The notes under the pieces are model-generated. The model searched no databases, was not told the DNA's origin, and saw nothing but the letters and a program-made list of their open reading frames with translations. A stretch of DNA of 40,000 bases from positions 527 through 40,526 of the forward strand of contig DASXVB010000208.1 of assembly GCA_036504475.1 (NCBI GenBank). The letters run 5' to 3'. Shown one piece after another: positions 6,114-30,193 of the stretch (within the stretch, counting starts at the first letter, position 1; each line of letters starts with the position of its first letter). A program made the position numbers and the translations under genes. This stretch comes from Methanosarcina sp. GTDB lineage: Archaea > Halobacteriota > Methanosarcinia > Methanosarcinales > Methanosarcinaceae.

Positions 6114-7772
6114 TCAATGGAACATTGTGGCTTTTTTAAATTTCGCTATAGTACGGAACTCTTTAATATCCATATCATTCCCACTATACGGTATTTTCGT
6201 GAATTGTTCGTTATCATTCTGAATATATACGTACACCGCAGTTGGTTTAGTTTTACCTAAGATCCTTACTGTTTTTAAACTACCTGCTTCCTCCATTGAT
6301 TCTACAACTATATTAAGATCATGACTACCGCATTTTATTTTACGCATTAGTTTGGATCTTTCGATTTTCAAGTTTTTCCTCATCTCATCGTATACTTTAT
6401 CGCCAATCGAAGGCTGTACACCATTAGCTGATCCGATATCCGACATGATGGAACTAGCATAAGGAAGATAAACGTTGTCGAATAACCTTGCTGCATATAT
6501 GAACGATGCCAGCGTCACCGTCAAACGTTCGATTCTTAATTTGGCGACTTTCTCAAGATCCACAGCCATTATTTTTCTGTATATCTCTTCATCGCTTGGA
6601 ATTTCAGAAGGATTAACCTTCATATTTATTTCACTGACATCATCTAGAGAGTCCATTGTCGATAGTATGTAAGGCAGGTTTCCAATATCAATGAGTGCGA
6701 CTAGTTTCAGGGCAGTAGTTTGATATTTTCCAAAGAATGAATCTAGTTCGTGCCTCCTAGAACTAAAGAATAATTTCCTTTCTGCGCTCCATTTGTTGAG
6801 AAAACCGGCGTTTTCGTCGCCGTTTAAACTAAGCACACCTTCTTCAACGCCCAATTCAATGTCATTTTCTCCAAATAGAACGTTTATGATTTTTAATGAG
6901 TGTATCAGGGCTTTGGTTCTTAATGAGTCCTCACCTGATGTTATTCTAATTGGTCCTCTTGTCCTTTGGTATGTAGGGTTAACGATTATATGACGTGGTA
7001 GAAATCCCGTGTTGGCGTCTCCTGAAGTCATATGTTTACAGAAGTCTGATGTTGTAGTTGCCGCTATCATCGCGAAATACAGATTTTCAAGTTCGTATGT
7101 GTCATTAGACAGCGTATAATCAGGCATTTTCTCTTTGCACTCATACAACTCGTTAAATATATCTACAGTGCCTTTCATGTGCTGTTTTCCCAGTTGTGAA
7201 TATAAACTACCCGCCTCATCTTTCCAGTATACCCGCTGACCGTGTGGGATTTCACCGAATTTATCAAGCTCAGTGATTACGACTTCTCCTGTTTTCGTTC
7301 GTTCACCATGCCTGCAGGCGAGGATTTTTTGCAGTGTTTCAGGAGTACATTGGGAAGGTAAGAATGTTTCACCTACAGCCTCCCGTACGATCTTTTCGCC
7401 GATGCTCATAGGTCCTGATTTACGACTAGATGACAGTCCAAGTAATATCGCCCACACGTTAAGGTACTTCGTGGAACCGTTAAGGTTGAAATGCGCTCTC
7501 CGTCTAGTTACGGCTGATAACATGGCGAATCCTGTTTGCATGGAGTATTCAGGGTAAGCATCTGTTTGTTTCTTATTTGCCTCAACTAACAGTTTCACAA
7601 AGTTGTATCTAGGCATTCCATCGAAATTTACAGGTGCTATATCTGAGCGTTGGATTGGGACGTCCTCGAGTGATGGATACACTTCAATGTGTTCTGCGTC
7701 TTCGATATTGTCTTTATAGCCATGTGCGGTGATTACTTTAAGTTGATGAGGGTTGTCAATTTCGATAGCCAT
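6114..7772 (-). CDS. P-loop-like protein, putative replication/helicase-type protein of an integrated element (552 aa)
   Basis: Long ORF. The motif ILLGLSSSRKSGP resembles a degenerate Walker A (GxxxxxKS) of the kind seen in DUF3987-type plasmid/phage proteins. It lies in a minus-strand gene string with the small ORF, RHH and integrase genes. Function is inferred only. Confidence 0.55.
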   Translation of the reverse strand: MAIEIDNPHQLKVITAHGYKDNIEDAEHIEVYPSLEDVPIQRSDIAPVNFDGMPRYNFVKLLVEANKKQTDAYPEYSMQTGFAMLSAVTRRRAHFNLNGSTKYLNVWAILLGLSSSRKSGPMSIGEKIVREAVGETFLPSQCTPETLQKILACRHGERTKTGEVVITELDKFGEIPHGQRVYWKDEAGSLYSQLGKQHMKGTVDIFNELYECKEKMPDYTLSNDTYELENLYFAMIAATTTSDFCKHMTSGDANTGFLPRHIIVNPTYQRTRGPIRITSGEDSLRTKALIHSLKIINVLFGENDIELGVEEGVLSLNGDENAGFLNKWSAERKLFFSSRRHELDSFFGKYQTTALKLVALIDIGNLPYILSTMDSLDDVSEINMKVNPSEIPSDEEIYRKIMAVDLEKVAKLRIERLTVTLASFIYAARLFDNVYLPYASSIMSDIGSANGVQPSIGDKVYDEMRKNLKIERSKLMRKIKCGSHDLNIVVESMEEAGSLKTVRILGKTKPTAVYVYIQNDNEQFTKIPYSGNDMDIKEFRTIAKFKKATMFH

Positions 7773-8437: not shown

Positions 8438-9769
8438 CTAATAATCCGGACCCACGTCACTTCCATCGTCGGGTGGCAGTATAAGCCGGTTTGGATGGAT
8501 TTTTTGAACAAGTCTGGTGCCCAATTTGAATCCCTCTTGCGTGCCCTTTATTTCCCTATACAGTGAATCTATCTCGTTGCGTAGAGCGTTTAATTCCTCG
8601 CGTTCAATTGTTCCTTTCGCAACCTCGTTTTTCAAGTTGATAATTTCTTGCCTTTCGACGATATGTTTTGCCGTTTCAGCCCTCAATATATCGTTTTCTG
8701 ATTTAATAGCTTGATATTCGGGACTTTCGGATAAATCTAGCTCTTTTTGAATCGTTAAATAGGGAATGTACTTTTTATAGATCTCTTTGAGTTTTTCATG
8801 TGACGCTCTGAAGTAGCTCTCCTGTGTGCTTGGCAGAGTATGTCCCATGAAGTATTCAACATGAAAAAAGTCACAACCAGCATTTAATAAAGCACTGTTA
8901 AAATATTTTCGCATGTTATGCGAACGTATAAAGCCATAATCGCCTTTTTTTGTGTTTTTGCTTGCCTTTTCTGATACACTTTGGTACAACCGCATGAGAT
9001 TTTTTTGGGTGAACTTCCTCAGTTCATCGTCATGTTTTTCTAAAAACCCATCGGATACATTACGCACACAAAGCAAGTAATCACTGTCCGAATACACTTT
9101 TTGCTTTTCGAGTTGTTTTGTTCGTTTTGAATTGTCTGCCTTTACAGTCCGGTTTCTAAAGATGATGTATTCATTGACAGCGCGGCTTGCTTCAGGACTC
9201 AAAAATGTGATAAAATCCACATTTTCTTTAATTCTACGAAGTTTCAGCATTGTGATTTCCGTTGCTGGGTCATATCCGGCTAAAAAATCTTCAATTTTCA
9301 GATTTACAATTTCCTGGGCGCCTAATCCTGACGATGCGCCAATTAATATAATTGCTTTCTCAATGGGATCACAAACTTTTAAAACTGTTTGAATATCTTC
9401 CTTGCATGGTATGTCCTTATTCTCTTTAAGCCCGGTTGGTTTTTCAATTTTGAGTTTTGGAATATCGATGTAATTTGCTTGGTAAAATGATTTCACCGCT
9501 GTCAGATATGTTTTTATTGTATAGGGCGCAAGGTTCTGTGAAGTCAGATAATCTCTGAACTGATTGAGATGGATTGAAAGGTGACGGTTTCGCATTTTTA
9601 AATTGTCTTGTTCGAAGTCAGCTTCGTCGATAAGCTCATCCGGCGTTTTACCCAATTGTTCGCAATATATTTTTAGGACCGATGCGTATAACGTTTTAGT
9701 TGTACTCCTGGTAAATGAGTTTATCCAATTTACAAAAACTGGAAAGTCATTCATTCTAAAATTTTTCAT
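8438..9769 (-). CDS. int: tyrosine recombinase / phage-type integrase (443 aa) with a long coiled-coil C-terminal tail
   Basis: The C-terminal catalytic region IRSHNMRKYFNSALLNAGCDFFHVEYFMGHTLPSTQESYF carries the HxxR ... GH ... Y signature, and the N-terminus is SAM-like. The expected box I arginine is not obvious (SSGLGAQEIVNL). About 100 aa of heptad-like sequence follow the catalytic Tyr. Confidence 0.8.
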   Translation of the reverse strand: MKNFRMNDFPVFVNWINSFTRSTTKTLYASVLKIYCEQLGKTPDELIDEADFEQDNLKMRNRHLSIHLNQFRDYLTSQNLAPYTIKTYLTAVKSFYQANYIDIPKLKIEKPTGLKENKDIPCKEDIQTVLKVCDPIEKAIILIGASSGLGAQEIVNLKIEDFLAGYDPATEITMLKLRRIKENVDFITFLSPEASRAVNEYIIFRNRTVKADNSKRTKQLEKQKVYSDSDYLLCVRNVSDGFLEKHDDELRKFTQKNLMRLYQSVSEKASKNTKKGDYGFIRSHNMRKYFNSALLNAGCDFFHVEYFMGHTLPSTQESYFRASHEKLKEIYKKYIPYLTIQKELDLSESPEYQAIKSENDILRAETAKHIVERQEIINLKNEVAKGTIEREELNALRNEIDSLYREIKGTQEGFKLGTRLVQKIHPNRLILPPDDGSDVGPDY

Positions 9770-11988: not shown

Positions 11989-12372
11989 TTGAATTATATA
12001 AACCCAGCTAAATGTACTGAACTTGATTACATTAACTTTCTTATTGCTTCTTCGCGAGCCTTTAGCTGTACTGAAGCTTCTAAGTGCAGTTTTATAGACT
12101 CGACTAGTCCAGCTCATGACTCTTTTATTCGTCTTCTCATAAGACAGTCTCAAGTAAAGTCTCTAGTCACTCCTGAAACTGGAGTTCTTATTATTGATGA
12201 TACTGTTCTCAATAAACCTTATTCCAAACGTATGGATCTTGTTTATCGGCAATGGAGTGGCAAAAATCATCAGATTGTAAATGGCATCAATCTCGAAACC
12301 GTTGTCTGGACGTATAATGATGCTATAATACCTGTTGACTTTAGGACTTACGCACTTGAAGTACAAAATCAA
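11989..12372 (+). pseudogene. IS4/IS701-like DDE transposase, N-terminal fragment only
   Basis: INPAKCTELDYINFLIASSRAFSCTEASKC ... GVLIIDDTVLNKPYSKRMDLVYRQWSGKNHQIVNGINLETVVW...PVDFRTY is the conserved N-terminal third of this transposase type. The remainder of the ORF is AT-rich junk, so the gene is truncated at about 12340-12372. Confidence 0.7.
12341..12372. repeat. 32-bp box, copy 1 (ttaggacttacgcacttgaagtacaaaatcaa)
   Basis: Matches the reverse complement of 15765-15796 at 29 of 32 positions. Confidence 0.85.
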
Positions 12373-12781: not shown

Positions 12782-12795
12782 GATTAATATTAATA
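12782..12795. repeat. target-site duplication, left copy (GATTAATATTAATA)
   Basis: An identical 14-mer in direct orientation lies at 30180-30193, immediately outside the two inverted termini. Confidence 0.8.
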
Positions 12796-13110
12796 GGGAT
12801 ATAAGGGTTGGCATTTTTGATAGTTTTATTTGAATGTTTTAATAATATTTTAAAATTTAGATAGTAAAACTGTGATATTTTGACAGTAGTATATAATTTT
12901 CTCTCAAATCGTAACGCTATATTATTTTTACACAAAATCTTCTGCTTAATAACTCCAAATTATAAAAAATCACAATCAAGAGCGATGTAACAAAAATAAG
13001 TTACACAAGTTTTCAAGGTAAAAGCTTTTTAATCGATCTAAATCCTATCTTTTTGTTAGGTTGTTTGGTAAGATACTCAAACCAGAATATTATTAATACT
13101 AGCAAACTTT
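12796..13110. repeat. casposon left terminal inverted repeat (~315 bp)
   Basis: It starts gggatataagggttggcatttttgatagttttatttgaatgttttaataatattttaaaa. The reverse complement of the right end reads gggatatataggttggcatttttgatagttttatttgaatgttttaataatattttaaaa. Similarity by eye drops to about 70 percent further inward. Confidence 0.8.
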
Positions 13111-13398
13111 TACAAATTATTTGAATTTAACCTGAAAAAATTTACAATTTCCTTGTTACATTCCTAAAAAATAATCAAGTTATAAAGTATAACTGACGTC
13201 TTAATTGCCATAACAAAAAGTAAATTTTTTACATTTTTTTAAATTTGCTGAAAAAAATAAGGCCCTTTTTTATTAATTTTATAGTTATGAAAGAGAATGT
13301 GCTTTTATACTTTTTAGAAATTTAAATCAATTTATTATAAATCATTTTTAGTTAAGAAATTGAAGTACATTTTTCATATCAATTACGCTTAAAATTAT

Positions 13399-14001
13399 TC
13401 AACGAATTTCACTTCTTCTTTCTACATCAATATCATCTAAAATTGTCTCAATTTCTTCCATCAAAATATCTCTTTCTGAACTCTCACTCATTTTATCGAT
13501 ATGTTCACCAACTCTTTCATAGTGCATGTTAGGTTTTTGTTTTTCGTACGCAGACCATATTTTGTTTTTAACATCATCAAGGCTAAAGACTTGGTTTTCT
13601 GATAAACTCAAATATATCATCATTACTAAGTATCTGCAATAAGGATGATCTAATATCACATAAAGATAAGCAAGGCGATCTATACTTTCTGAATTAATTG
13701 GTAAATTATTTCTTCTGTCAATATAATCATAAAATAATTCAAAGAACCAGATATTTGCTTCAATTCCTATACTTTGATAATCTTCTGGATCTAAATGAAG
13801 GTAGGAATTAGTTAGCCTATATATGTAATTTGTATGTTCTGACTTAGAACATCTATAATAACCATTATCTGTATCATTTGTGCCAAATAAAACCTGATCG
13901 AGTATATTAAGTTGACAATCTATCTCTTCCAAGTTTATTCCTGAACTACTTAAATGTTTTATTCTTTCAACTATAAGATAAATCAAAGGATCGTCAATCA
14001 T
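13399..14001 (-). CDS. hypothetical protein (200 aa), directly abutting the upstream HEAT-repeat gene
   Basis: Its ATG directly abuts the stop codon of the 550-aa gene (14001/14002). No motif recognised. Confidence 0.55.
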   Translation of the reverse strand: MIDDPLIYLIVERIKHLSSSGINLEEIDCQLNILDQVLFGTNDTDNGYYRCSKSEHTNYIYRLTNSYLHLDPEDYQSIGIEANIWFFELFYDYIDRRNNLPINSESIDRLAYLYVILDHPYCRYLVMMIYLSLSENQVFSLDDVKNKIWSAYEKQKPNMHYERVGEHIDKMSESSERDILMEEIETILDDIDVERRSEIR

Positions 14002-15654
14002 TTAAGGCCTCACGATTATGATATTATCATTATGAGAATGAAAAGCTATTAAGCTAGTGATTAAAGGTAGGTTTGGTCTCCCCTTACTGCTTGGAGGTGC
14101 ATGAAAATGATAAGTATAACTAACAAAATTTTTACCAATTAAATCGCTAAATAACCGACCTGAACCGATTTTTTCGAAATTTTCCCCAACTATAACTAGT
14201 GGTTTACATTCTTCTATTTTTTTGGAATATGGTGGTCTTCCAGATACCCAATCGGAAACAAGAAACCAGAAGTCTTGTTTTTTGTCACAATACTTCATAT
14301 TGTACTGATCTGGATGAAAAACGACTATGTCAATTTTAAATACTTTTCGAAACTTGTTTCTTAGGAGTCTATTAGCCCAATCTGCATGAACGGTAGTAGT
14401 TAAATAGCTGTAAAGGCCCTTTGTGTAAGCAATCCACCTCTGGTATAATTCGATTCCTTCAGGGCTACAGGCATCATATACATTTTCAATATCTTCAGTA
14501 TCTATCCATCCCATTACTCCTATACTACCATACATCATTGACGAGTAAGGATTTTTTATTGAAGTCAAATAAACCCCATCTCCCCAGGTAAAACCAGGAG
14601 ATTTAGATATAAAGAGTTTTTTTCCATTATTTAAAAAAGATTGGAAGTAAGCAGGAGAAAAATATTTAAGTCCATAAACTTTATCCTGATTTCCATTTAG
14701 TCCAATAAAATTCTCTCTGAACCAATTAGAAGATTTTTTTATATGATCAGAAATTTCTTTTTCTAATACATGATTTTGGATAATATTTTTTAGCTTTTTA
14801 TCCAGAAAAGGCAGGCCTTTTCTTATTGTTCCTATTGTGAATGGTGCTGTTTCTTCAGTATCCATCAAAAGTTCTATTGCATGTTCACAATATTTTCTAT
14901 AGAAATTAAGCTCATCTTTTTTTGTCTCTAAATCCAGATTTCCTAGACTCTGGACTTCTTTTAATGCTTCAGCAAGATTTTCAACAGCTTCAAAAAGCAA
15001 TTCCTTACTCTTTGAACCCTCAATTGCAGATTTAGCTTCTTCCAAATATTTGTTCACTTCTTCTCTAGCTTCCTGTCTTTTGAAAAGTATTGTGTAGAAA
15101 GAACGATAGAAAGGAAGACAAAATTTTGAAGGATTATACAAATAATGTGACTCCTGTGCTGCTTTTTCAAAAAAAGAAATAGCTTTTTCCAATTCTTTTT
15201 TATAATCTTCTTCTATTTTTGCTTGGGAAGCTTTGGATATAGAAACTTTTCCAAGAGCGTGATTTGAATAAACTCTCACATAACGGTCTTCATCAGTGGT
15301 AAGTCTGCGTAAGTCGTTCCATGCCTGTTGTTTATCTGGCACTTGAGAAAACACAGAACCAAGAGCGTCAGCAGCCATAGACCTAACATCACGGTCTTCA
15401 TCAGTGGTCAGTCTATGTAAATCGTCCCATGCCTGTTGTTTATCGGGCACATCAGAAAATGCAGTACCAAGTAAAGAAGCAGCCCAAGATCTCACAAAAC
15501 TGTTTTCATCATAAGTAAGTCCAATTAATTCATTCCATGCCTGTTGTTTATCCAGCAATTGTAAAAAATTGTCTGTTAATTTCTCTAATGCATGTCTACG
15601 CTCTTTTGGATTTTCGCTTAGACATTTATTGTGAATTTTCTCTTGGTCGACCAA
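14002..15654 (-). CDS. HEAT-repeat protein with an uncharacterised C-terminal domain (550 aa)
   Basis: The N-terminal ~130 aa contain three to four PBS-lyase/HEAT-type repeats (DKQQAWNDL.RLTTDEDR.VR..AA.ALG..FS.VP), followed by a helical linker. The C-terminal ~250 aa contain SPGFTWGDGVYLTSIKNPYSSMMYG. Confidence 0.7.
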   Translation of the reverse strand: MVDQEKIHNKCLSENPKERRHALEKLTDNFLQLLDKQQAWNELIGLTYDENSFVRSWAASLLGTAFSDVPDKQQAWDDLHRLTTDEDRDVRSMAADALGSVFSQVPDKQQAWNDLRRLTTDEDRYVRVYSNHALGKVSISKASQAKIEEDYKKELEKAISFFEKAAQESHYLYNPSKFCLPFYRSFYTILFKRQEAREEVNKYLEEAKSAIEGSKSKELLFEAVENLAEALKEVQSLGNLDLETKKDELNFYRKYCEHAIELLMDTEETAPFTIGTIRKGLPFLDKKLKNIIQNHVLEKEISDHIKKSSNWFRENFIGLNGNQDKVYGLKYFSPAYFQSFLNNGKKLFISKSPGFTWGDGVYLTSIKNPYSSMMYGSIGVMGWIDTEDIENVYDACSPEGIELYQRWIAYTKGLYSYLTTTVHADWANRLLRNKFRKVFKIDIVVFHPDQYNMKYCDKKQDFWFLVSDWVSGRPPYSKKIEECKPLVIVGENFEKIGSGRLFSDLIGKNFVSYTYHFHAPPSSKGRPNLPLITSLIAFHSHNDNIIIVRP

Positions 15655-15764
15655 CTACCTACACCATAAGTTCCGATAAAACTAAAAGCTTAAAACAGTT
15701 TCTTTTTGACTTTAGAAATTCATAATAAGATTTATTTAAAATGGATCCAAAATGTATATTGTTC

Positions 15765-15796
15765 TTGATTTTGTACTTCGAGTGCCTAAATCCTAA
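15765..15796. repeat. 32-bp box, copy 2 (ttgattttgtacttcgagtgcctaaatcctaa)
   Basis: Inverted copy of 12341-12372 (29 of 32 match). It lies 78 bp downstream of the Cas1 stop codon. Confidence 0.85.
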
Positions 15797-15873
15797 TTTT
15801 TAGAGTTTCTACAGAGCAAGTAAAATTTACATTTTTACATTTTACATGTAAAAACATGCACATTTTACATATT

Positions 15874-16872
15874 TTAATATAGAAAATTGATATCTTCCCT
15901 TCTTCCCTCTACATATTCCGCTAATTCAAACCCTTTCCTTTCTATTACTTTTCTTCTCGGAATAAGTTTTCCTTCATATTCTATTCTTTCACCCATTCGG
16001 GTTTCATAGGCCTTACTTAGCTTATCTGTCCCTCCCTCTCTTAACCTGAGAGAATAATTATTCATTCTCAAAAAATCGCTTTTAGGAACTCTAAAACCTT
16101 TTGAGAGTAATTTATAGACTGTTACATATATTTCTCCTCTAAAAATCTCCTGTAGATCGTATGCTAAACTTCGTTTTTCATTTCTCATTTCATGTAAAAA
16201 GCCGATACATGGATCAAGCCCTACTGTATTAATTACTCTCAAACATTCGGCTTCAAGTAAGGCATAACCATAATTTAGCATTGTATTAGTATAATCAGAG
16301 GCCCCCCTTCCAGATCTTTCTACAAAACCCCATTTTTCAGGAATAGCTTTCATAAATTCTTTCCAGTAGATTTTTGCTGATTCTCCTTCAATCCCCATTA
16401 ATTCAGGTATATCTTTTGCTTTATCGACTGCTTTAAGATATGGGGAAATAACATAAGATTCAATATCAGGATAAGGCAAGGATTCTAAAACCTTAATAGA
16501 ATTAGCTAGTTTAGCATTAATTATACTCTGAGCAATAGAAAATCTTCTCTTTTCATCATTATAGGTTTTATACTGTGCAATTTTCCGCTTTCCATTTCCC
16601 TCTTTTTCCTGATTAACAGAAGATAATAAACTACCATCCCAATTCAAAATATTAAGCTGAATGTTCTGTAAACTTATCCACTTAAAAGCTTCAAGGGAAA
16701 CATAGCCGGTTTGACCATAAATCAAGATAGATGTTATCTTTTTCTGATTTGGTTGTAAACAATAAATCTCTTCCTCTCTATCTTTAGTTAAAGGAATTCC
16801 GTTTTTAATTATAAGTTTCCCGTCATTAACTTTTAAAGAAATTCCATAACCATCCAAGAGTAAAAGACCCAT
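15874..16872 (-). CDS. cas1: Cas1 homolog, casposase (332 aa)
   Basis: NTMLNYGYALLEAECLRVINTVGLDPCIGFLHEMRNEKRSLAYDLQEIFR is the hallmark Cas1 core with the catalytic His and acidic residues. EGESAKIYW supplies the upstream Glu, and the N-terminus is the typical beta-rich domain. The gene sits next to PolB rather than cas2. Confidence 0.9.
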   Translation of the reverse strand: MGLLLLDGYGISLKVNDGKLIIKNGIPLTKDREEEIYCLQPNQKKITSILIYGQTGYVSLEAFKWISLQNIQLNILNWDGSLLSSVNQEKEGNGKRKIAQYKTYNDEKRRFSIAQSIINAKLANSIKVLESLPYPDIESYVISPYLKAVDKAKDIPELMGIEGESAKIYWKEFMKAIPEKWGFVERSGRGASDYTNTMLNYGYALLEAECLRVINTVGLDPCIGFLHEMRNEKRSLAYDLQEIFRGEIYVTVYKLLSKGFRVPKSDFLRMNNYSLRLREGGTDKLSKAYETRMGERIEYEGKLIPRRKVIERKGFELAEYVEGRREDINFLY

Positions 16873-17006: not shown

Positions 17007-20000
17007 TTAATTAACGCTTAATATGTCTTTACAATAATTAACTAATATTGCTGGAACAATACAATTTAGGTTTAGGCTTTCATTTTTTCGGACCTTACTT
17101 TTTACATCCATTAAAGATTGCTCTGGAATTCCTAATTTTCCCACTTCTTTTACAGATAACCCTAGAATAATCTCTTTCTCTTTTTCTGTTGGCAAATGAT
17201 AATTGCCTCTCAGATGTTTTCTAGCTCGTTTTAAAGTCTTCAGAGATTCTTCTACCCATTTTATGGTGGGTTTTTCTAATCCGGTTTTATACGTTTCTAT
17301 TTCCTTTTTTATTTTTGATAAATCAGAGTTTCTAACGTCTCCTCTTCTTCTTGCTTTTTCCCAGGCAATCTCTACTTTTTCGGTTAAATTTTCAAGCTTC
17401 TCAAAAACCTGAACGTCATCTTCCTCTGCCTCAGGTAACTCTTCAAACTGCTTTACTTGATCAATTTCCTTTCCTATCGCTTTGATGCCTGTTATAAAGA
17501 TTTCTCTGCGTTTAAGCAGTCCTCTTTTTCCCGTGAATTTTGCTTCAGGATGGTTATAATAATCAAAAAAGGTTTTATCCATTCTATTAAAGTATTCAGT
17601 TCCTTCTTTTATTTCCCCTGTTTTTGCATCAATAAATGGATTATTAACCATGTCCTGAAAATTATCACTCATTGGAGCAATTGGCATTATGTCCTTATTA
17701 GGACTATTCCCTCTAAGGAAGAAATTATAAGGTTTAATTCGCTCTTCATATGGCTTTCCGCTATTGATTTGATTAAACCAGTAAAGGACTGTTGGTGTTC
17801 TGATCCCGATTTTTGATATTTCAAACTTATTTCCGTATTTTGAAATTATATCGGTTTCATCTAGGATTCCTTCGTGATAAAGGATAATATCTCTCCACAT
17901 TATTGGATGCCATTTTTTATTTTCTTCTGTTTCTATCTGAAAAATATTAGATATATGCCCCAATCCATGAAGCTTCCCCTCCATTCTTGTAATATCAGGG
18001 ACTCCGTTTTCGTCACGTGCAAAGACCACATATCTTTTTGAAGAGATTCCTAAAAAGAATTGTTGAGGAGTCCTTAATCCGGTTTCTTCATCTTTTACTC
18101 TTCCTTTGAATTTATCCTCAATTTTAAGAAGTTCAGAAACATTCTCATAAGGGTTTAATGGATTAAAGAAATTGGAAACCTCTTCCGCTATTTCTGGTGG
18201 CACGAAAATACTATCGGTATCCATGTAATAATGAGAATACCCTAGTTCCTTAACTTTAGCCTCTGCTATTGCTAACATAAGTCTTGAAGCGGCTGTTATT
18301 GTGGTTCCAATTAGTGGATTAAAAAATTTACCTTCTTTTTCCGATCTGCCAAAAGAAGTAAACTTTTCTTCTCCTCTACAGACTATTAATTCTTTTTCAG
18401 TTTCCTGAGTGTTTAATTCAACGAATATGCCATATCCAAGCGCGTTAGATAAAATTTTTAATCCAAGTTGTTTTCCATCCTTCTCTGAATACTCGGAAGA
18501 ATCTTCATCCAGTAATTTCATTTCCTTTTTAATTTTCTGTCTTTCCTCTACAAAGAATTTAATCAAATTATCTTTTCTTGGGTTTATTTTATATCCTAGT
18601 ATTTTAGTTGACTTTAATCCATTTTGTTTTGTTCCAGGTTCATACTTGTAAGCCATTAGTATTTCAGGGGTTTTTCCAGTAAGGAGCTTACTTGCTACTA
18701 CGTCACAAAGAGTGAACCAGATGCATTTATCTGAACTTAGATTCTCAAGTCCAACAGTTTTTTCTGTATTCTCATCGTAACCTGTTCTAAGTGGTAAAAT
18801 ATCATTATCCGGTTTCACTTTGACTATAGCAGGCATTTTTTTCCATATACTGGGATCTTGCATTTTTTCCAGGGTTATCGAGTCGACAAATTCCTTAATT
18901 TCTTCTGTTGCTTCTTTTTCAACATAGCAGTTTGAAATCATGTAGTCCCATAGTCCTATTAAAACGATAACCGAAGGATACATAGATGTAAAGTCTAAAA
19001 CTTCAGATGGTTTTATCTCATGCCTGAGTTTACATTCCACTCGGCCTGCATAGAAAGCTTCCATTATCCGACCTAAGCTATCAGAAGGATATTCAGGATT
19101 TAAGTCTAAAAATGGCTTTATTCCCATTTGTTTAAACAAGGCTTTGCCTATTGATGCACCACTATAAATTCTGTTAAAAGGAAGATCTTTTAAACCAATA
19201 TTCTTAATCGCTTCTTCTACTTTCACATATACGTCATATGTTGCTTTTACGTCACCCTGTAAATAAGTCAAGTACTCTTTGGTAATCTCTCCATGTTTTT
19301 CTACCTCTAATTTTTGATGTTCTGTTTTTAACATCTTACAGGCTTCTTTTAATGTAAAGTGTTGAGTACCAGATCCAAAAAGAACACTAACTAAATGCGA
19401 ACAATCAAAGAAGTATCCCTTCTTCTTTTCGTCAGTATTGTTAACCACTATTTTTCTTTTTCTTCCTTTTTTATCTATCATTTCTTCTTCACATTTTGCT
19501 TGCGAAAAACTGATAGATTCAGCTAAGCCCATTCTTCTTATTTTGATATTAGGTACTGTCGGAAATTCTGGAAAAGATAGGAGAATATCTCCCTTTCTTG
19601 GGTCACCTTTAACAGTATTCTCGGCTTTGCCAGCAATTCTGCTTAAATCAAAGGGTAAATTATAGCCAATGCAAGGCGTTTCTTTTCCATAGCATTCGGG
19701 TAAAAAGATATTCGCAATAAATTCAGATGTTGAATATAACGGAATATTTTTTTCTTCAGCATATTCCTTAAGTATCTTGATCTCCTTATAAGATGGTGGA
19801 ATTTGCATAAGGGAATTTTGCAGATTGGTAAAACGAGTATTTATTACCGCGTGTTTCTCAGGCATCGGAACATAAAAGAACCCGTTTTCCTGCAATTCCC
19901 CATTTTCCAAAATTTCAAAATACCCGACTTCCAAATTTTGATAACAGTCTGTCGTTGTTTCAGTATCAAGTACTAGAAGCCTAGGATATGATGTTTTTAA

Positions 20001-20093
20001 AGAGTCTTGATAAAAACCACAAAATTTTGAGCCTTTCTTTCTCCTTTCTTCGGTCTCGATATATCCTCTACAAAATGCTTCTTTGTATTCCAT
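17007..20093 (-). CDS. polB: family B DNA polymerase (1028 aa) with a C-terminal HTH-containing extension
   Basis: All motifs are present: Exo I LVLDTETT, Exo II YNLPFDL, Exo III YLQGDVKATYDVY, motif A DFTSMYPSV, motif B KILSNALGYGIF, motif C YYMDTDSIF, and KxY as SSKRYVV. Confidence 0.92.
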   Translation of the reverse strand: MEYKEAFCRGYIETEERRKKGSKFCGFYQDSLKTSYPRLLVLDTETTTDCYQNLEVGYFEILENGELQENGFFYVPMPEKHAVINTRFTNLQNSLMQIPPSYKEIKILKEYAEEKNIPLYSTSEFIANIFLPECYGKETPCIGYNLPFDLSRIAGKAENTVKGDPRKGDILLSFPEFPTVPNIKIRRMGLAESISFSQAKCEEEMIDKKGRKRKIVVNNTDEKKKGYFFDCSHLVSVLFGSGTQHFTLKEACKMLKTEHQKLEVEKHGEITKEYLTYLQGDVKATYDVYVKVEEAIKNIGLKDLPFNRIYSGASIGKALFKQMGIKPFLDLNPEYPSDSLGRIMEAFYAGRVECKLRHEIKPSEVLDFTSMYPSVIVLIGLWDYMISNCYVEKEATEEIKEFVDSITLEKMQDPSIWKKMPAIVKVKPDNDILPLRTGYDENTEKTVGLENLSSDKCIWFTLCDVVASKLLTGKTPEILMAYKYEPGTKQNGLKSTKILGYKINPRKDNLIKFFVEERQKIKKEMKLLDEDSSEYSEKDGKQLGLKILSNALGYGIFVELNTQETEKELIVCRGEEKFTSFGRSEKEGKFFNPLIGTTITAASRLMLAIAEAKVKELGYSHYYMDTDSIFVPPEIAEEVSNFFNPLNPYENVSELLKIEDKFKGRVKDEETGLRTPQQFFLGISSKRYVVFARDENGVPDITRMEGKLHGLGHISNIFQIETEENKKWHPIMWRDIILYHEGILDETDIISKYGNKFEISKIGIRTPTVLYWFNQINSGKPYEERIKPYNFFLRGNSPNKDIMPIAPMSDNFQDMVNNPFIDAKTGEIKEGTEYFNRMDKTFFDYYNHPEAKFTGKRGLLKRREIFITGIKAIGKEIDQVKQFEELPEAEEDDVQVFEKLENLTEKVEIAWEKARRRGDVRNSDLSKIKKEIETYKTGLEKPTIKWVEESLKTLKRARKHLRGNYHLPTEKEKEIILGLSVKEVGKLGIPEQSLMDVKSKVRKNESLNLNCIVPAILVNYCKDILSVN

Positions 20094-21809: not shown

Positions 21810-22133
21810 TGAGTTTTCTAATATGTTAAACAAAAATGTGGGTTATTGGGATAAACCTACTACTATAGTCAAGAGGCTAAATAATGCAACTATTAGATGG
21901 ATTACAAAGTGATTTTTGTTGCAGCAATTATAGGCGTGACTATAGGTCATTTTGCTTCTAAAAAACAAGAAAGTTAAGCAATTATATAACAGAAAAAACT
22001 AAAAAACTTGATTTTATTAAACCTGAGTTTGAGGTTTTTAGGTTTGATTCTCAGGAAATTAGACAAAAAATCCTTAACATTCTTATGTTGATTGGAAAAA
22101 ACTAGGTTTTTTTCGAAGGGAACTTTACATTAT

Positions 22134-22349
22134 ATGAAACAAAATGCTAAAAGCGATAAGCCTTTCACTCTCAACAGCCATGTTTTAGAGAGAGTTAAAG
22201 CTTGGAAAACTTAGTTTCTAGGGTGACAGGTTAAGGTTTAAAAAGGTTAAGTTTTAAGGTTAGGAGCTAAGTTTTAGGGTTTGGGAGTCATGTTTAAGTT
22301 TGGGGTTAAGTTTTAAGGCAAAGGGTTAAAGAAAGAAAAAAACCTAAAT
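22134..22349 (+). repeat. ~215-bp duplicated module, copy 1 (mini-ORF plus GGTTAAG/TTTTAAGG iterons)
   Basis: It aligns with 22608-22820. It begins atgaaacaaaatgctaaaagcgataagcctttcactctcaac, continues through repeated ggttaag(t)tttaagg units, and ends aagggttaaagaaagaaaaaaacctaaat. Confidence 0.75.
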
Positions 22350-22607: not shown

Positions 22608-22820
22608 GTGAAACAAAATGCAAAAAGTAATAAATCATTCACCCTTAACGGCAATATTTTGGAGATGGTTATGGCTTGGGAAAACTTAGTTTCTGGGGGC
22701 GAGGTTAAATTTTAAGAAGGACTTTAGGTTTTAAGATAAGGGGCTAATTTTTGGGAAACAGGTTTTAAAATGGGATTAAATTTTAAGGTTAAGGGTTAAA
22801 GAAAGAAAAAAAACTAAATT
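22608..22820 (+). repeat. ~215-bp duplicated module, copy 2
   Basis: It begins gtgaaacaaaatgcaaaaagtaataaatcattcacccttaac, has the same iteron block, and has the same aagggttaaagaaagaaaaaaaactaaat end. It is offset 474 bp from copy 1. Confidence 0.75.
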
Positions 22821-26831: not shown

Positions 26832-28478
26832 TTATTTTTTTTCTATGTTTTTTCCCTTCCAGCTTTTTAACTGACGGATTTTCAAACTGGAATCAATGCA
26901 TTTAATAGTATTCGCATTAAGTCTATGTGGATAACATAACAAGAAATAATACATAAATTGTAGTTTGTCATTTACGACTTCTGGTGTAAGTAGATCTATT
27001 TTAGTTGCCTCAATAGTTAACTCGTTCCAGCTTTGAGGCATTTTGTAATCTTTCATACTTGTTTTCCCGTTATAGCATCGCCATAAGAATAAATCCGCTT
27101 TTAAATCAGGTTGAAATGTATACTTACAGATACGCGTAATTTCTTCCCACACTACTTCTAGTAAGTCTCTGCGCTTTCTTCTAACTAAGATATCAACCAG
27201 TGCTCCTAAGTGATAAGAAGAACCATGAAATGCCATCGAGTCAATTTCGACTTCAGAAATGCCATGCATTGAAGAAATTATCTCATTTGAGCTTATATAA
27301 GGACTCGGTATTCCTTTTCCCTTATAGTCATTTCCAAATGTTATTTCCGATATGATATCAGTAATTATCCTGTTTGACAATTCTTTGTCATTGAATTCTA
27401 AAGCTACTAAACTCATTATTATGAAGAAAGGTGTAGCTGACTCTCCCCAGTACCAAATTTTTTTAGGATATAGTCTCTTTATGAATTCATAGATCAGATT
27501 GTCAATTTCGTAGTTACTTTCAGTTTTATTTCTGAAAAGCTCATAAGCCGATAGCCAGCCAAGAACAATAGTTAACCTTGCTTTATATATCTCTCCTCCG
27601 TCACCAAATGGCATTCCTTCTAAATAATTTTCTTTAGAGATAAATTCCTTTTTTAACTCTTCTAATTGATTATTTATTTTTTGTAATATAATTTCATAAG
27701 ATTGGATCCAATCTTTTTCTGCTAATGAGAACTTTTCTATCAAATTAAACATATAACTGCAAAGTATAGTCCATCCCTCAATTATTGGAATATGATTTTT
27801 CTTGTTCTCATAAGGTTGTAAGACATATTGGGTCAATAGTATACTACTTGAAATCTTTCTCTTAATAGAAGGTTTACTATTACTTTTTGCAAACAAGATA
27901 GATTCAATAAAATTAGCATAGAGGTCTTTATTCAGAAATCCGTCCCCTTCTGAAAGAAATAACTCCAAAAATACTCGAAATTCTGAAGGTTCTACGGGCA
28001 GAAATGATCCATGAATTCCTAAAAACTTTTGAACTAATTCGGGGTAAATTATTGTATTAAGTTTTGGATATCCTTGTTGTTTATTTTTCAAGTTTATATC
28101 AGCAATATTTTTTATAACAGGTTCAGAAATTAATCCGTTAGTTACTAAAAAAGGTTTATGCTCAGCAGATATATCAACAGATGGATGATTTATGGGAATT
28201 CTAATTAGATCCATGATTTCTCCCTGTATATTTCTCCACTCAGCTGTTTTGATATTTCCACCTTTTAATTGGAATGCATGAACAGTTCCGTCCTTATCTA
28301 TCGAGATTATGTCCTTACCTTGTTCTATGGAACTATGAGATGAAATAGAAATTATTTTATGATTTTCAGAAATAAGATACTGGCAAAAGGGGATCTGATA
28401 ACCAATTTCATTGGTATTAGTCAACCAATTTTCGATTACTCTCTTTATCAATCCACTCTCTCCTTTTTCTTTCAACAA
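26832..28478 (-). CDS. hypothetical protein with a PD-(D/E)xK-like nuclease-fold N-terminus (548 aa; start uncertain)
   Basis: The N-terminal segment NEIGYQIPFCQYLISENHKIISISSHSSIEQGKDIISIDKDGTVHAFQLKGGNI resembles the E...GxD(I/V)(I/V)..D....h.(Q/E)xK core of Mrr/DUF4365-type restriction-fold domains. The remainder is helical. It overlaps the upstream 196-aa gene by up to 62 nt. Confidence 0.65.
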   Translation of the reverse strand: MLKEKGESGLIKRVIENWLTNTNEIGYQIPFCQYLISENHKIISISSHSSIEQGKDIISIDKDGTVHAFQLKGGNIKTAEWRNIQGEIMDLIRIPINHPSVDISAEHKPFLVTNGLISEPVIKNIADINLKNKQQGYPKLNTIIYPELVQKFLGIHGSFLPVEPSEFRVFLELFLSEGDGFLNKDLYANFIESILFAKSNSKPSIKRKISSSILLTQYVLQPYENKKNHIPIIEGWTILCSYMFNLIEKFSLAEKDWIQSYEIILQKINNQLEELKKEFISKENYLEGMPFGDGGEIYKARLTIVLGWLSAYELFRNKTESNYEIDNLIYEFIKRLYPKKIWYWGESATPFFIIMSLVALEFNDKELSNRIITDIISEITFGNDYKGKGIPSPYISSNEIISSMHGISEVEIDSMAFHGSSYHLGALVDILVRRKRRDLLEVVWEEITRICKYTFQPDLKADLFLWRCYNGKTSMKDYKMPQSWNELTIEATKIDLLTPEVVNDKLQFMYYFLLCYPHRLNANTIKCIDSSLKIRQLKSWKGKNIEKK

Positions 28479-29007
28479 TTTCTCTTATTTTTTCCTGTAT
28501 ATTTGGGTCAAATTGCATTTTTGAGTAATCACTTTTGATTCTTTCATAATCATTTGGATTGACGATGATATCCGGCATAGTTGGGTTTCCAAACTCATCA
28601 AAAATAATACTCACCTTATCTAATACTTCCAAATACCATTCAGATATCGGTTTTGATTTGCAATCTACTCTGTTTCCTGTTTGATGCGTAGTTTCTTCGA
28701 AAGCATCAATTAAAAGTTTGCCTTGTTTTTTCCTCATTTCTTCAGTGATTTCTGAAAATTTAGAATAATAAGCATCTAATCCCTTTTCGATCAAATCTTC
28801 AGGTTTTATTCTTAACTCTGTCGAAATTGTTTTAAATTCTTTTTCTTCTGAACGTCCACTTGCACTATTTATTTCCAAATTATTTCCTTCATATATGGGT
28901 CTTTTTTGAGCAACTTTCATTAACGTATCTTTTTGAGTCTCTTTTATCATATTTCTTTGAAAATTAATCAGAAGCTTCCTTTTTATTTCTGGATAATCAG
29001 GTAACAT
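28417..29007 (-). CDS. hypothetical protein (196 aa), first gene of a two-gene cassette
   Basis: Clean ORF with a charged C-terminus (KIREIVERKRREWIDKESNRKLVD) that overlaps the next gene. No motif recognised. Confidence 0.6.
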   Translation of the reverse strand: MLPDYPEIKRKLLINFQRNMIKETQKDTLMKVAQKRPIYEGNNLEINSASGRSEEKEFKTISTELRIKPEDLIEKGLDAYYSKFSEITEEMRKKQGKLLIDAFEETTHQTGNRVDCKSKPISEWYLEVLDKVSIIFDEFGNPTMPDIIVNPNDYERIKSDYSKMQFDPNIQEKIREIVERKRREWIDKESNRKLVD

Positions 29008-29859: not shown

Positions 29860-30179
29860 GAAAAATTTTCTGGTATTAAAACGATATTTTCTTTTGAATA
29901 TCTTTACAAAACAAATAAAGAAAAAGATTTAGATTAGATTAAAAAATTCAGAAATTCTACAAAATTTCACGTAACTATTTTTGATTACAGTTCTACCCAT
30001 TGTGATTTCAACAATTTAGAATTACTAAACAGAAAATTTCTGATAAAAAATGCATTAGTGTTACGGTTTTAGAGAAAAGTATGAATGACTGCTAGAAAAT
30101 AACATTTTTACTATCAAAGTTTTAAAATATTATTAAAACATTCAAATAAAACTATCAAAAATGCCAACCTATATATCCC
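29860..30179. repeat. casposon right terminal inverted repeat (~320 bp)
   Basis: It ends ...ttttaaaatattattaaaacattcaaataaaactatcaaaaatgccaacctatatatccc, which is the reverse complement of the left terminus. Confidence 0.8.
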
Positions 30180-30193
30180 GATTAATATTAATA
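30180..30193. repeat. target-site duplication, right copy (GATTAATATTAATA)
   Basis: Identical to 12782-12795. Confidence 0.8.

Follow-up and report, generated by a model that had tools for sequence, protein, structure and literature searches.

The stretch of DNA analysed here (the window; 40,000 nucleotides of Methanosarcina sp., assembly GCA_036504475.1, contig DASXVB010000208.1, positions 527 to 40,526 of the forward strand) was found to carry a casposon in which a gene for a 550-amino-acid (aa) protein, a HEAT/helical scaffold fused to a C-terminal domain resembling ADP-ribosyltransferases (ART), is followed immediately by a gene for a 200-aa partner protein. With moderate confidence, we read this pair as a swapped-in ART-type enzyme with its cognate helical-repeat binder, forming an intracellular conflict module of toxin/immunity-like character that belongs to the variable cargo of the casposon. 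This reading was reached because an ART-like enzyme is coupled to a fast-evolving binder, the two are exchanged as one unit, their distribution is extremely patchy and they are carried by a casposon. The anatomy of the genes, the protein family, its near-universal co-occurrence with the partner, the exchange of the cassette and its casposon location are all direct observations. The features of the pair are as follows (ORF, open reading frame; AF2, AlphaFold2).

15655..15873, minus strand: intergenic leader from cas1 to the HEAT gene (from the sequence; 88% identical in the casposon relic of genome G260)
14002..15654, minus strand: 550-aa gene, HEAT/helical scaffold fused to the ART-like C-terminal domain (ORF list, translation)
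15235..15552, minus strand: three ~36-aa HEAT repeats, residues ~35-140 (Pfam HEAT_2/HEAT; translation; repeat-level self matches by blastn)
14785..15234, minus strand: helical scaffold region, residues ~141-290, common to many Methanosarcinales HEAT proteins
14005..14784, minus strand: predicted ART-like domain, residues ~291-550 (family alignment, AF2 model, Foldseek)
13399..14001, minus strand: 200-aa partner gene, ATG start (ORF list, translation)
13203..13398, minus strand: 3' untranslated tail of the cassette, where homology to other carriers stops (blastn)

Both ORFs and their direct abutment had been reported in a preliminary description of this DNA and were found at the coordinates given there, the stop codon of the 550-aa gene abutting the partner start as TAA-ATG (…AGG CCT TAA ATG ATT…), a junction that is also kept in seven related archaeal loci. 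The N-terminal HEAT repeats proposed there were likewise recovered, with the Pfam match of the 550-aa protein (HEAT_2, residues 80-138, E 4.5e-11) confined to the N-terminal part. The 550-aa gene starts with TTG, directly behind an in-frame TAG; an N-terminal extension by read-through of this codon as pyrrolysine was considered and ruled out, since the frame above the TTG contains many stops. The leader contains a TTTAAATA box (15733-15740, minus strand) that may act as a promoter, as well as one copy of a 32-bp dispersed repeat (15765-15796), and the G+C content around the locus is ~32%. Compared with a copy from another sample at 95.7% nucleotide identity (L002), both genes are under purifying selection, with ratios of non-synonymous to synonymous substitution rates (dN/dS) of 0.37 for the 550-aa gene and 0.23 for the partner, both calculated from small counts.

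The C-terminal ~260 aa, which the preliminary description had left unassigned, are a distinct domain without a match in Pfam, NCBIfam, PHROGs or PADLOC, and belong to a real, undescribed protein family. Residues 280-550 had a single close relative in a collection of 5.8 billion proteins (P0004, 59% identity, with a different N-terminus), and 1.84 billion cluster representatives searched with a HMMER profile yielded 122 proteins at E<=1e-3, 35 of them at E<=1e-30, most family members being stand-alone proteins of 245-290 aa. In a 63-sequence alignment (residues are numbered here as in the full-length 550-aa protein), K330, T356, W357, G358, Y362, G376, F435, P448 and D449 were invariant and R432, D461 and W463 nearly so; the segment G-x-G-x-Y-[LV]-[TS], followed by Y-G, was invariant or nearly invariant. 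All family-invariant residues are retained in the 550-aa protein, and the peptide that had been quoted as recalling the NAD site of ART enzymes lies at its residues 352-376. None of the 63 members matched any Pfam model at E<=0.01, no NCBIfam or PHROGs model was found for the domain in scans of a few members, and a PADLOC-DB v2 scan of the window proteins returned no match to the ART-like domain or the partner; weak LmuA and HEAT_CxxC_PD-DEXK matches to the 550-aa protein (~E 1e-6) fell on its N-terminal HEAT repeats alone. Where source annotations name these proteins they always give 'hypothetical protein', including in the cultured Tunturiibacter gelidoferens.

A probable fold was assigned to this family by structure prediction. 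The AF2 model of the domain, built from the 63-sequence alignment, had a mean predicted local distance difference test score (pLDDT) of 92.4 and a predicted template modelling score (pTM) of 0.90, and in a Foldseek comparison with the PDB ranks 1-22 were all ART folds (best E 0.019, probability 0.96), among them exotoxin A domain III, cholix, the RhsP2 toxin and the PARP domains of RCD1, PARP4 and PARP10. Against a viral structure library the top match was an uncharacterised Agrobacterium-phage protein (E 8.6e-4), followed by MuF-fusion, ART-PolyVal-like, iridovirus PARP-like and phage ART proteins. No housekeeping fold was assigned by this check, which the preliminary description had called for. 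In the model, a strand ending at K330 is followed by a helix, then by a strand bearing G-x-G-V-Y362-L-T and, further on, by Y375-G, then by a strand leading to P448-D449, with D461 immediately before the next strand; this sequence of conserved elements fits the ART motif order. The G-x-G-x-Y-[LV]-[TS]...Y segment appears to resemble the nicotinamide-stacking strand of PARP and exotoxin A. The invariant Y362 would supply the Tyr motif, and D449 and D461 are candidate acids. The domain may use NAD+.

The best structural matches of the domain are to the diphtheria-toxin/PARP (H-Y-E) clade, from which it differs in having an invariant Lys for the His, a tentatively placed Asp for the Glu, an extra three-helix insertion (domain residues 118-158), a long N-terminal helix and no profile-level similarity. 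Several results count against the assignment to ART. In the PDB comparison no match fell below E 1e-3, and template modelling (TM) scores were 0.3-0.5 (0.42-0.52 when normalised to the target). The first motif is the invariant Lys (K330) and not the canonical His or Arg of the ART triad, neither an H-Y-E nor an R-S-E triad is present as such, and the candidate catalytic acid is D449 or D461, not fixed to one of them. At the level of sequence, Pfam searches of 13 family members at E<=10 gave no ART match, a PDB profile search with the 63-sequence alignment gave no match at E<=10, and hhalign comparison of that alignment with one of Tpt1/KptA from 25 Methanosarcinales genomes gave an uninformative probability of 0.4%. 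From these same results (E-values all above 1e-3, modest TM scores, no profile match to any ART family, no classical triad) it could be argued that the domain is not an ADP-ribosyltransferase at all and shares a superficial alpha/beta resemblance with that fold while having another activity, or a binding role only. We consider this rather unlikely, as such a resemblance would have to account for 22 consecutive top PDB matches and several viral-library matches within one superfamily, for a confident AF2 model, and for an invariant G-x-G-x-Y strand motif and a conserved acid before a beta strand that fit the ART motif order. A split beta-sheet ART core therefore appears to be recovered by structure comparison, with the reservation that the scores are modest; given these modest scores and the lack of a sequence-level link, we treat the ART fold of the domain as probable and not proven, and as moderately supported by the modelling. 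The weak ART resemblance noted in the preliminary description is thus strengthened by the predicted structure, while the first residue of the triad, a Lys, does not conform.

The partner was found wherever the enzyme gene was followed far enough to look for it, with few exceptions. Each of eight close partner homologues (47-94% identity) lies on a contig where the abutting upstream gene ends in the ART-like ~260-aa domain, and in the archaeal loci the partner always abuts the ART-like gene. In 17 bacterial genome loci with the domain, an ORF of 205-270 aa lies downstream of the enzyme gene, abutting it or overlapping it by 4 nt. A hidden Markov model (HMM) made from the archaeal partners alone picked out several of these bacterial ORFs among all neighbour ORFs (best E 7e-9), and a joint partner HMM found the partner directly downstream in ~40 of 45 loci with room for it, including 17 of the 19 loci that had not contributed to the model. 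The exceptions were two fragmentary enzyme genes (L034, L036), a locus with only short downstream ORFs (L028), and two loci (L134, L136) where the downstream gene is of the same size and too divergent for the model. The co-occurrence of the two genes, which the preliminary description had named as a check, accordingly extends across archaea and bacteria, as adjacent, co-directional and translationally coupled genes with a conserved partner.

The partner itself was modelled by AF2 (pLDDT 82) as nine helices in an all-alpha helical repeat, for which Foldseek returned designed helical repeats, ARM, TPR and 14-3-3 proteins, all at E > 0.1; scans of the Pfam, NCBIfam, PHROGs and PADLOC libraries gave no family match. 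Identity to bacterial homologues was 8-25% for the partner compared with 33-50% for the ART-like enzyme, and W85 was the only invariant partner residue. Because of this low identity and the single invariant residue, we regard the partner as a fast-evolving binding protein and not an enzyme. Divergence so much faster than that of the cognate enzyme is typical of immunity proteins.

Enzyme and partner move as one cassette between unrelated N-termini. Among the archaeal carriers, the window protein, L002 and L006 have a HEAT N-terminus, L005, L009, L010 and L103 have ~20 leucine-rich repeats (LRR; in L103 with Pfam LRR_14 at 3e-70), and L001 has an unrelated N-terminus before the ART-like domain; across HEAT, LRR and other carriers the enzyme-plus-partner unit has 72-77% nucleotide identity. 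By blastn, homology stops 117-196 nt past the partner stop, with L002 matching at 95.7% as far as 13203 and the LRR-type L005 at 76.8% as far as 13282. The other end of the cassette was located by a decayed casposon in genome G260, whose DNA matches window positions 15275-16486 at 88% identity through Cas1, the leader and the first part of the HEAT gene. Its scaffold continues at 78% DNA identity to window position 14840 (~residue 272), the protein being 69% identical up to residue 293, and past that residue the G260 protein has a coiled-coil type tail in place of the ART-like domain. The bacterial stand-alone proteins start aligning at about the same residue. From the G260 break and this alignment start, it follows that the ART-like domain and the partner arrived together, either inserting into the end of a casposon-borne scaffold gene or taking its place; a C-terminal domain and its partner exchanged together onto different N-termini is a hallmark shared with polymorphic toxins. 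The homology breakpoints of the cassette are thus at ~14840 and ~13203-13282. A pair of 32-bp inverted boxes (12341-12372 and 15765-15796) had also been considered as its boundaries and was ruled out, there being at least 30 genomic copies of the box and one of the two lying outside the casposon inverted repeat.

The scaffold has a much wider distribution than the domain it carries here. Scaffold residues ~100-285 were found in 117 of 283 other Methanosarcinales genomes, in several copies each and none with the ART-like part, in an order-wide search that was dominated by the HEAT/helical part of the query. The 23 scaffold paralogues that were fetched cover residues 100-285 of the 550-aa protein and then differ at the C-terminus, which is a common small alpha/beta module, a coiled-coil tail with a hydrophobic end or, in one case, a PNP_UDP_1 phosphorylase domain (L058, Pfam 1e-21). 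Such relatives with other effector-type ends, of which the PNP_UDP_1 protein is an example, were counted in favour of the cassette reading. As side observations, the HEAT/helical scaffold (14785-15552) was matched in 55 of the 58 other genomes in the genus and occurs several times in each, the small alpha/beta module of the paralogues carries the motif PLQEISY, and the scaffold proteins (loci L057-L076) look like a modular family with exchangeable ends.

Casposons are self-replicating transposons related to the origin of CRISPR adaptation. The element in the window is defined by the following features.

12783..12929, no strand: left terminal inverted repeat of the casposon, pairing with 30046-30192 over 147 nt at 84%
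15874..16872, minus strand: casposase Cas1 (Pfam Cas_Cas1, 1.3e-61)
17007..20093, minus strand: family B DNA polymerase PolB, 1028 aa (Pfam DNA_pol_B_2/DNA_pol_B)
30046..30192, no strand: right terminal inverted repeat of the casposon, pairing with 12783-12929

Cas1 and a family B polymerase between terminal inverted repeats are what identify a casposon, and as both genes lie directly upstream of the 550-aa gene on the same strand, with the 147-nt repeats flanking them, the gene pair lies inside the element; the partner stop is ~470 bp from the inner edge of the left terminal repeat. The cargo 'just inside a transposon end' of the preliminary description can therefore be given a carrier, with Cas1, PolB and the inverted repeats all found. 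Further genes of the casposon encode a Zn-ribbon protein, a basic protein, an HNH-like protein and a 922-aa NTPase-TPR protein (a STAND-TPR cargo). This gene content and the long repeats liken the carrier to the family 4 casposons of Methanosarcina mazei (MetMaz1FA1A3-C1-like; Krupovic et al. 2016, PMC4779613), which combine Cas1, PolB, HNH, Zn-finger, basic and large TPR proteins with long inverted repeats, and in the casposon G239:C25 the 826-aa TPR protein after cas1 matches the published 827-aa family 4 protein (PMC4779613). The published family 4 elements were, however, described without a HEAT-repeat gene, and none was reported with an ART-like domain or its partner (PMC4779613), whereas here the HEAT-ART gene and partner fill the slot between cas1 and the terminal repeat.

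The same slot was compared in related elements. In a casposon of genome G221, with a Cas1 82% identical and the same flanking host gene, it holds two multi-pass membrane proteins (587 and 331 aa); in that of G260 it holds the HEAT scaffold gene with another tail, and in the more distant G239:C29 two scaffold genes. Cargo exchange among related casposons thus has a hot spot in the stretch from cas1 to the terminal repeat. In three contigs from three runs of another sample (L002-L004), the cassette is present at 95.7% identity and continues into terminal-repeat-like DNA at 77.6%; at least one other variant of the casposon therefore has it as stable cargo. G260 and G239:C25 are decayed elements, with only cas1 fragments bearing TAG or TGA stops.

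The decay of these related casposons in other genomes, the TTG start directly after a stop codon and the crowding of the surrounding region with remnants of insertion sequences (IS) and miniature inverted-repeat transposable elements (MITEs) might suggest that the pair is inert, decaying cargo gained by recombination and without present function. This is very improbable in our view, since such cargo would not be expected to keep both ORFs intact, dN/dS at 0.23-0.37 against the 95.7% identical copy, the TAA-ATG junction in the archaeal loci and every family-invariant residue.

Several other elements were seen in and around the casposon. The 32-bp box often occurs in MITE-like, ~120-bp inverted pairs (such as contig C231, 1317-1434), and a DDE_5 transposase fragment (11989-12372) ends exactly at one copy of it. 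To the left of the casposon, a tyrosine integrase (8438-9769) and a DUF3987 protein (6114-7772) suggest that another element has integrated next to the casposon site, a situation reported for M. mazei casposon loci. Within the casposon, an overlapping pair of genes for 548-aa and 196-aa proteins (26832-29007) has no Pfam match, and a 1.6-kb non-coding stretch contains two copies of a ~200-bp module (22130-22330 and 22610-22810) rich in GGTTAAG/TTTTAAGG-like short repeats.

Outside the window the ART-like domain was rare. It was found in none of the 283 other Methanosarcinales genomes and in none of 300 sampled genomes from the phylum of one bacterial carrier, and was single-copy in five carriers, a pattern that points to an accessory, horizontally moving module. 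Its sparse spread takes in Methanosarcinales, Acidobacteriota, cyanobacteria, actinobacteria, Verrucomicrobiota and proteobacteria, the 17 bacterial genome loci being mostly of Acidobacteriota, with others in a Leptolyngbyaceae cyanobacterium, Acidimicrobiia, Chthoniobacterales, Luteimonas and Aureimonas. Some neighbours are of defence or mobile-element type: a 1180-aa SIR2-NB-ARC-TPR protein and a CHAT-protease/hydrolase protein (L121), an AIPR abortive-infection protein (L130, an IMG/VR contig), an MNT-HEPN pair (L136), IS110 and rve fragments together with weak signals of TIR and SIR2 (L134) and, in the casposon of the window, the STAND-TPR cargo. On the cyanobacterial contig L117, the ART-like gene is immediately preceded, on its own strand, by a gene for NrtR (Nudix plus winged helix, 8733-9440), a sensor of ADP-ribose that regulates NAD metabolism, so that this neighbour gives a single-locus hint towards NAD chemistry. 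A PP2C phosphatase gene was also seen next to NrtR.

In bacteria, the usual arrangement is an operon of four genes (A-B-ART-partner) that ends with enzyme and partner, as in L020, L024, L106, L121, L130, L137 and ~20 further bacterial loci. Gene A encodes a protein of ~215-245 aa that carries the motif G-x-G-G…L-L-S-C-S-L-E-R-S. The product of gene B has ~101 aa, looks beta-rich when its sequence is judged by eye and carries the motif W-C-L-N-x-S-x-x-P-P; the Luteimonas and Aureimonas versions of gene B sit as a fusion at the end of a larger protein. Library scans (Pfam, NCBIfam, PHROGs, PADLOC) gave no family match for either gene. Both are missing from the archaeal loci, which have the fused repeat scaffold instead.

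These bacterial loci also supply points against a conflict module. Many of them are surrounded by housekeeping genes (DnaK, TyrRS, TruA, MutS2, peptidases, glycosyltransferases, ABC transporters, ferritin, CutA1, FMN reductase, a protein kinase, a sigma-70 factor and proteins of the PSCyt family, a planctomycete-type cytochrome). With genes A and B conserved in most bacterial loci and absent in archaea, the two-component picture may be incomplete, and a partner with one invariant residue and no enzymatic signature would be equally compatible with an adaptor role. Such points would be expected of a two-subunit modifying enzyme, in which the partner is a substrate-targeting or activating subunit and the activity serves the reversible, NAD+-dependent regulation of a host or casposon process, with no killing; the alpha-solenoid of the partner is a common adaptor fold, the conserved genes A and B suggest a multi-component machine, and the adjacent NrtR gene in one locus would also suit it. 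We consider this alternative unlikely, because the extremely patchy distribution, the exchange of the cassette between unrelated repeat scaffolds, the fast divergence of the partner and carriage by a casposon are features of conflict modules and not of regulatory housekeeping enzymes, and because some copies lie beside defence genes. The proposal in the preliminary description that the pair is a defence cassette accordingly holds in part, being borne out by the patchy distribution and by some defence and mobile-element neighbours, and at odds with the many bacterial loci among housekeeping genes.

The reading as a toxin/immunity-like module was then set against known systems. Like the ART toxin/neutraliser pairs DarT-DarG, ParT-ParS, Tre1-Tri1, RhsP2-RhsI2 and CmdTAC, the pair combines a gene for an enzyme of predicted ART fold with a dedicated partner gene and is patchily distributed, moving with mobile elements; RhsP2 is itself among the structural matches of the domain, and the order of genes, enzyme first and partner second with coupled translation, is that of DarTG and of toxin-immunity cassettes. 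The ART-like domain differs in having no sequence or profile similarity to DarT, ParT, Tre1 or the Pfam ART models, and an invariant Lys in place of His or Arg, and its bacterial versions have two extra conserved genes. The partner is a predicted helical repeat and not a macrodomain, an ADP-ribosylhydrolase, or an Xre-type or disordered antitoxin. Among polymorphic toxins, HEAT-repeat immunity proteins and several ART toxin clades have been listed in a survey (Zhang et al. 2012, PMC3482391). As in Rhs- and contact-dependent inhibition (CDI)-type polymorphic toxins, a C-terminal domain and a downstream partner move jointly, with a sharp break of homology at the domain boundary, but the carriers here are cytoplasmic HEAT or LRR proteins with no signal peptide, Rhs/YD repeats or secretion/trafficking domain (type 5 to type 7 secretion systems, T5SS-T7SS), and in bacteria the ART-like domain stands alone. 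As the defining features of DarTG, of ParST and of secreted polymorphic toxin systems were looked for and not found, the pair is not assigned to any of these. No signal peptide was seen by eye at the N-termini of the 550-aa protein, P0004 and P0180, where only HEAT or LRR repeats occur, and it is for this lack of secretion signals that an intracellular use is favoured.

If ART toxin/immunity and toxin/antitoxin pairs are taken as an analogy, the conflict module might work as follows. An ART-fold enzyme domain, presumably NAD+-using, would be grafted onto the Methanosarcina HEAT/helical scaffold, and its cognate helical-repeat binding protein would be produced by coupled translation, bind the enzyme and keep it inactive; once released by a trigger, the enzyme would go on to modify a target of the cell or of a virus. 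Recognition of that target or of the trigger might fall to the repeats of the scaffold, HEAT in this protein and LRR in its relatives, and the cassette in the slot between cas1 and the left repeat may serve host defence or the retention of the casposon. Toxicity of the enzyme, its neutralisation by the partner and a role in defence or addiction are each suggested by this analogy. A broader proposal, which we put forward as tentative, is that the unit is a plug-in effector/immunity cassette that can be fitted to repeat sensors without an NTPase (HEAT, LRR) in archaea and to a four-gene operon in bacteria, making it an unrecognised anti-virus or addiction system with a non-canonical Lys-Tyr-Asp ART site, and the first enzymatic conflict effector in a casposon cargo slot.

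Casposons have been known mainly for their Cas1 and PolB core, and the function of their variable cargo is almost unexplored. If the enzyme is active, the domain would represent a new clade of ART enzymes, unusual in its active-site signature, and the partner a new family of neutralisers in the toxin/immunity repertoire, and the casposon would offer a testable case of an archaeal transposon that carries a conflict module.

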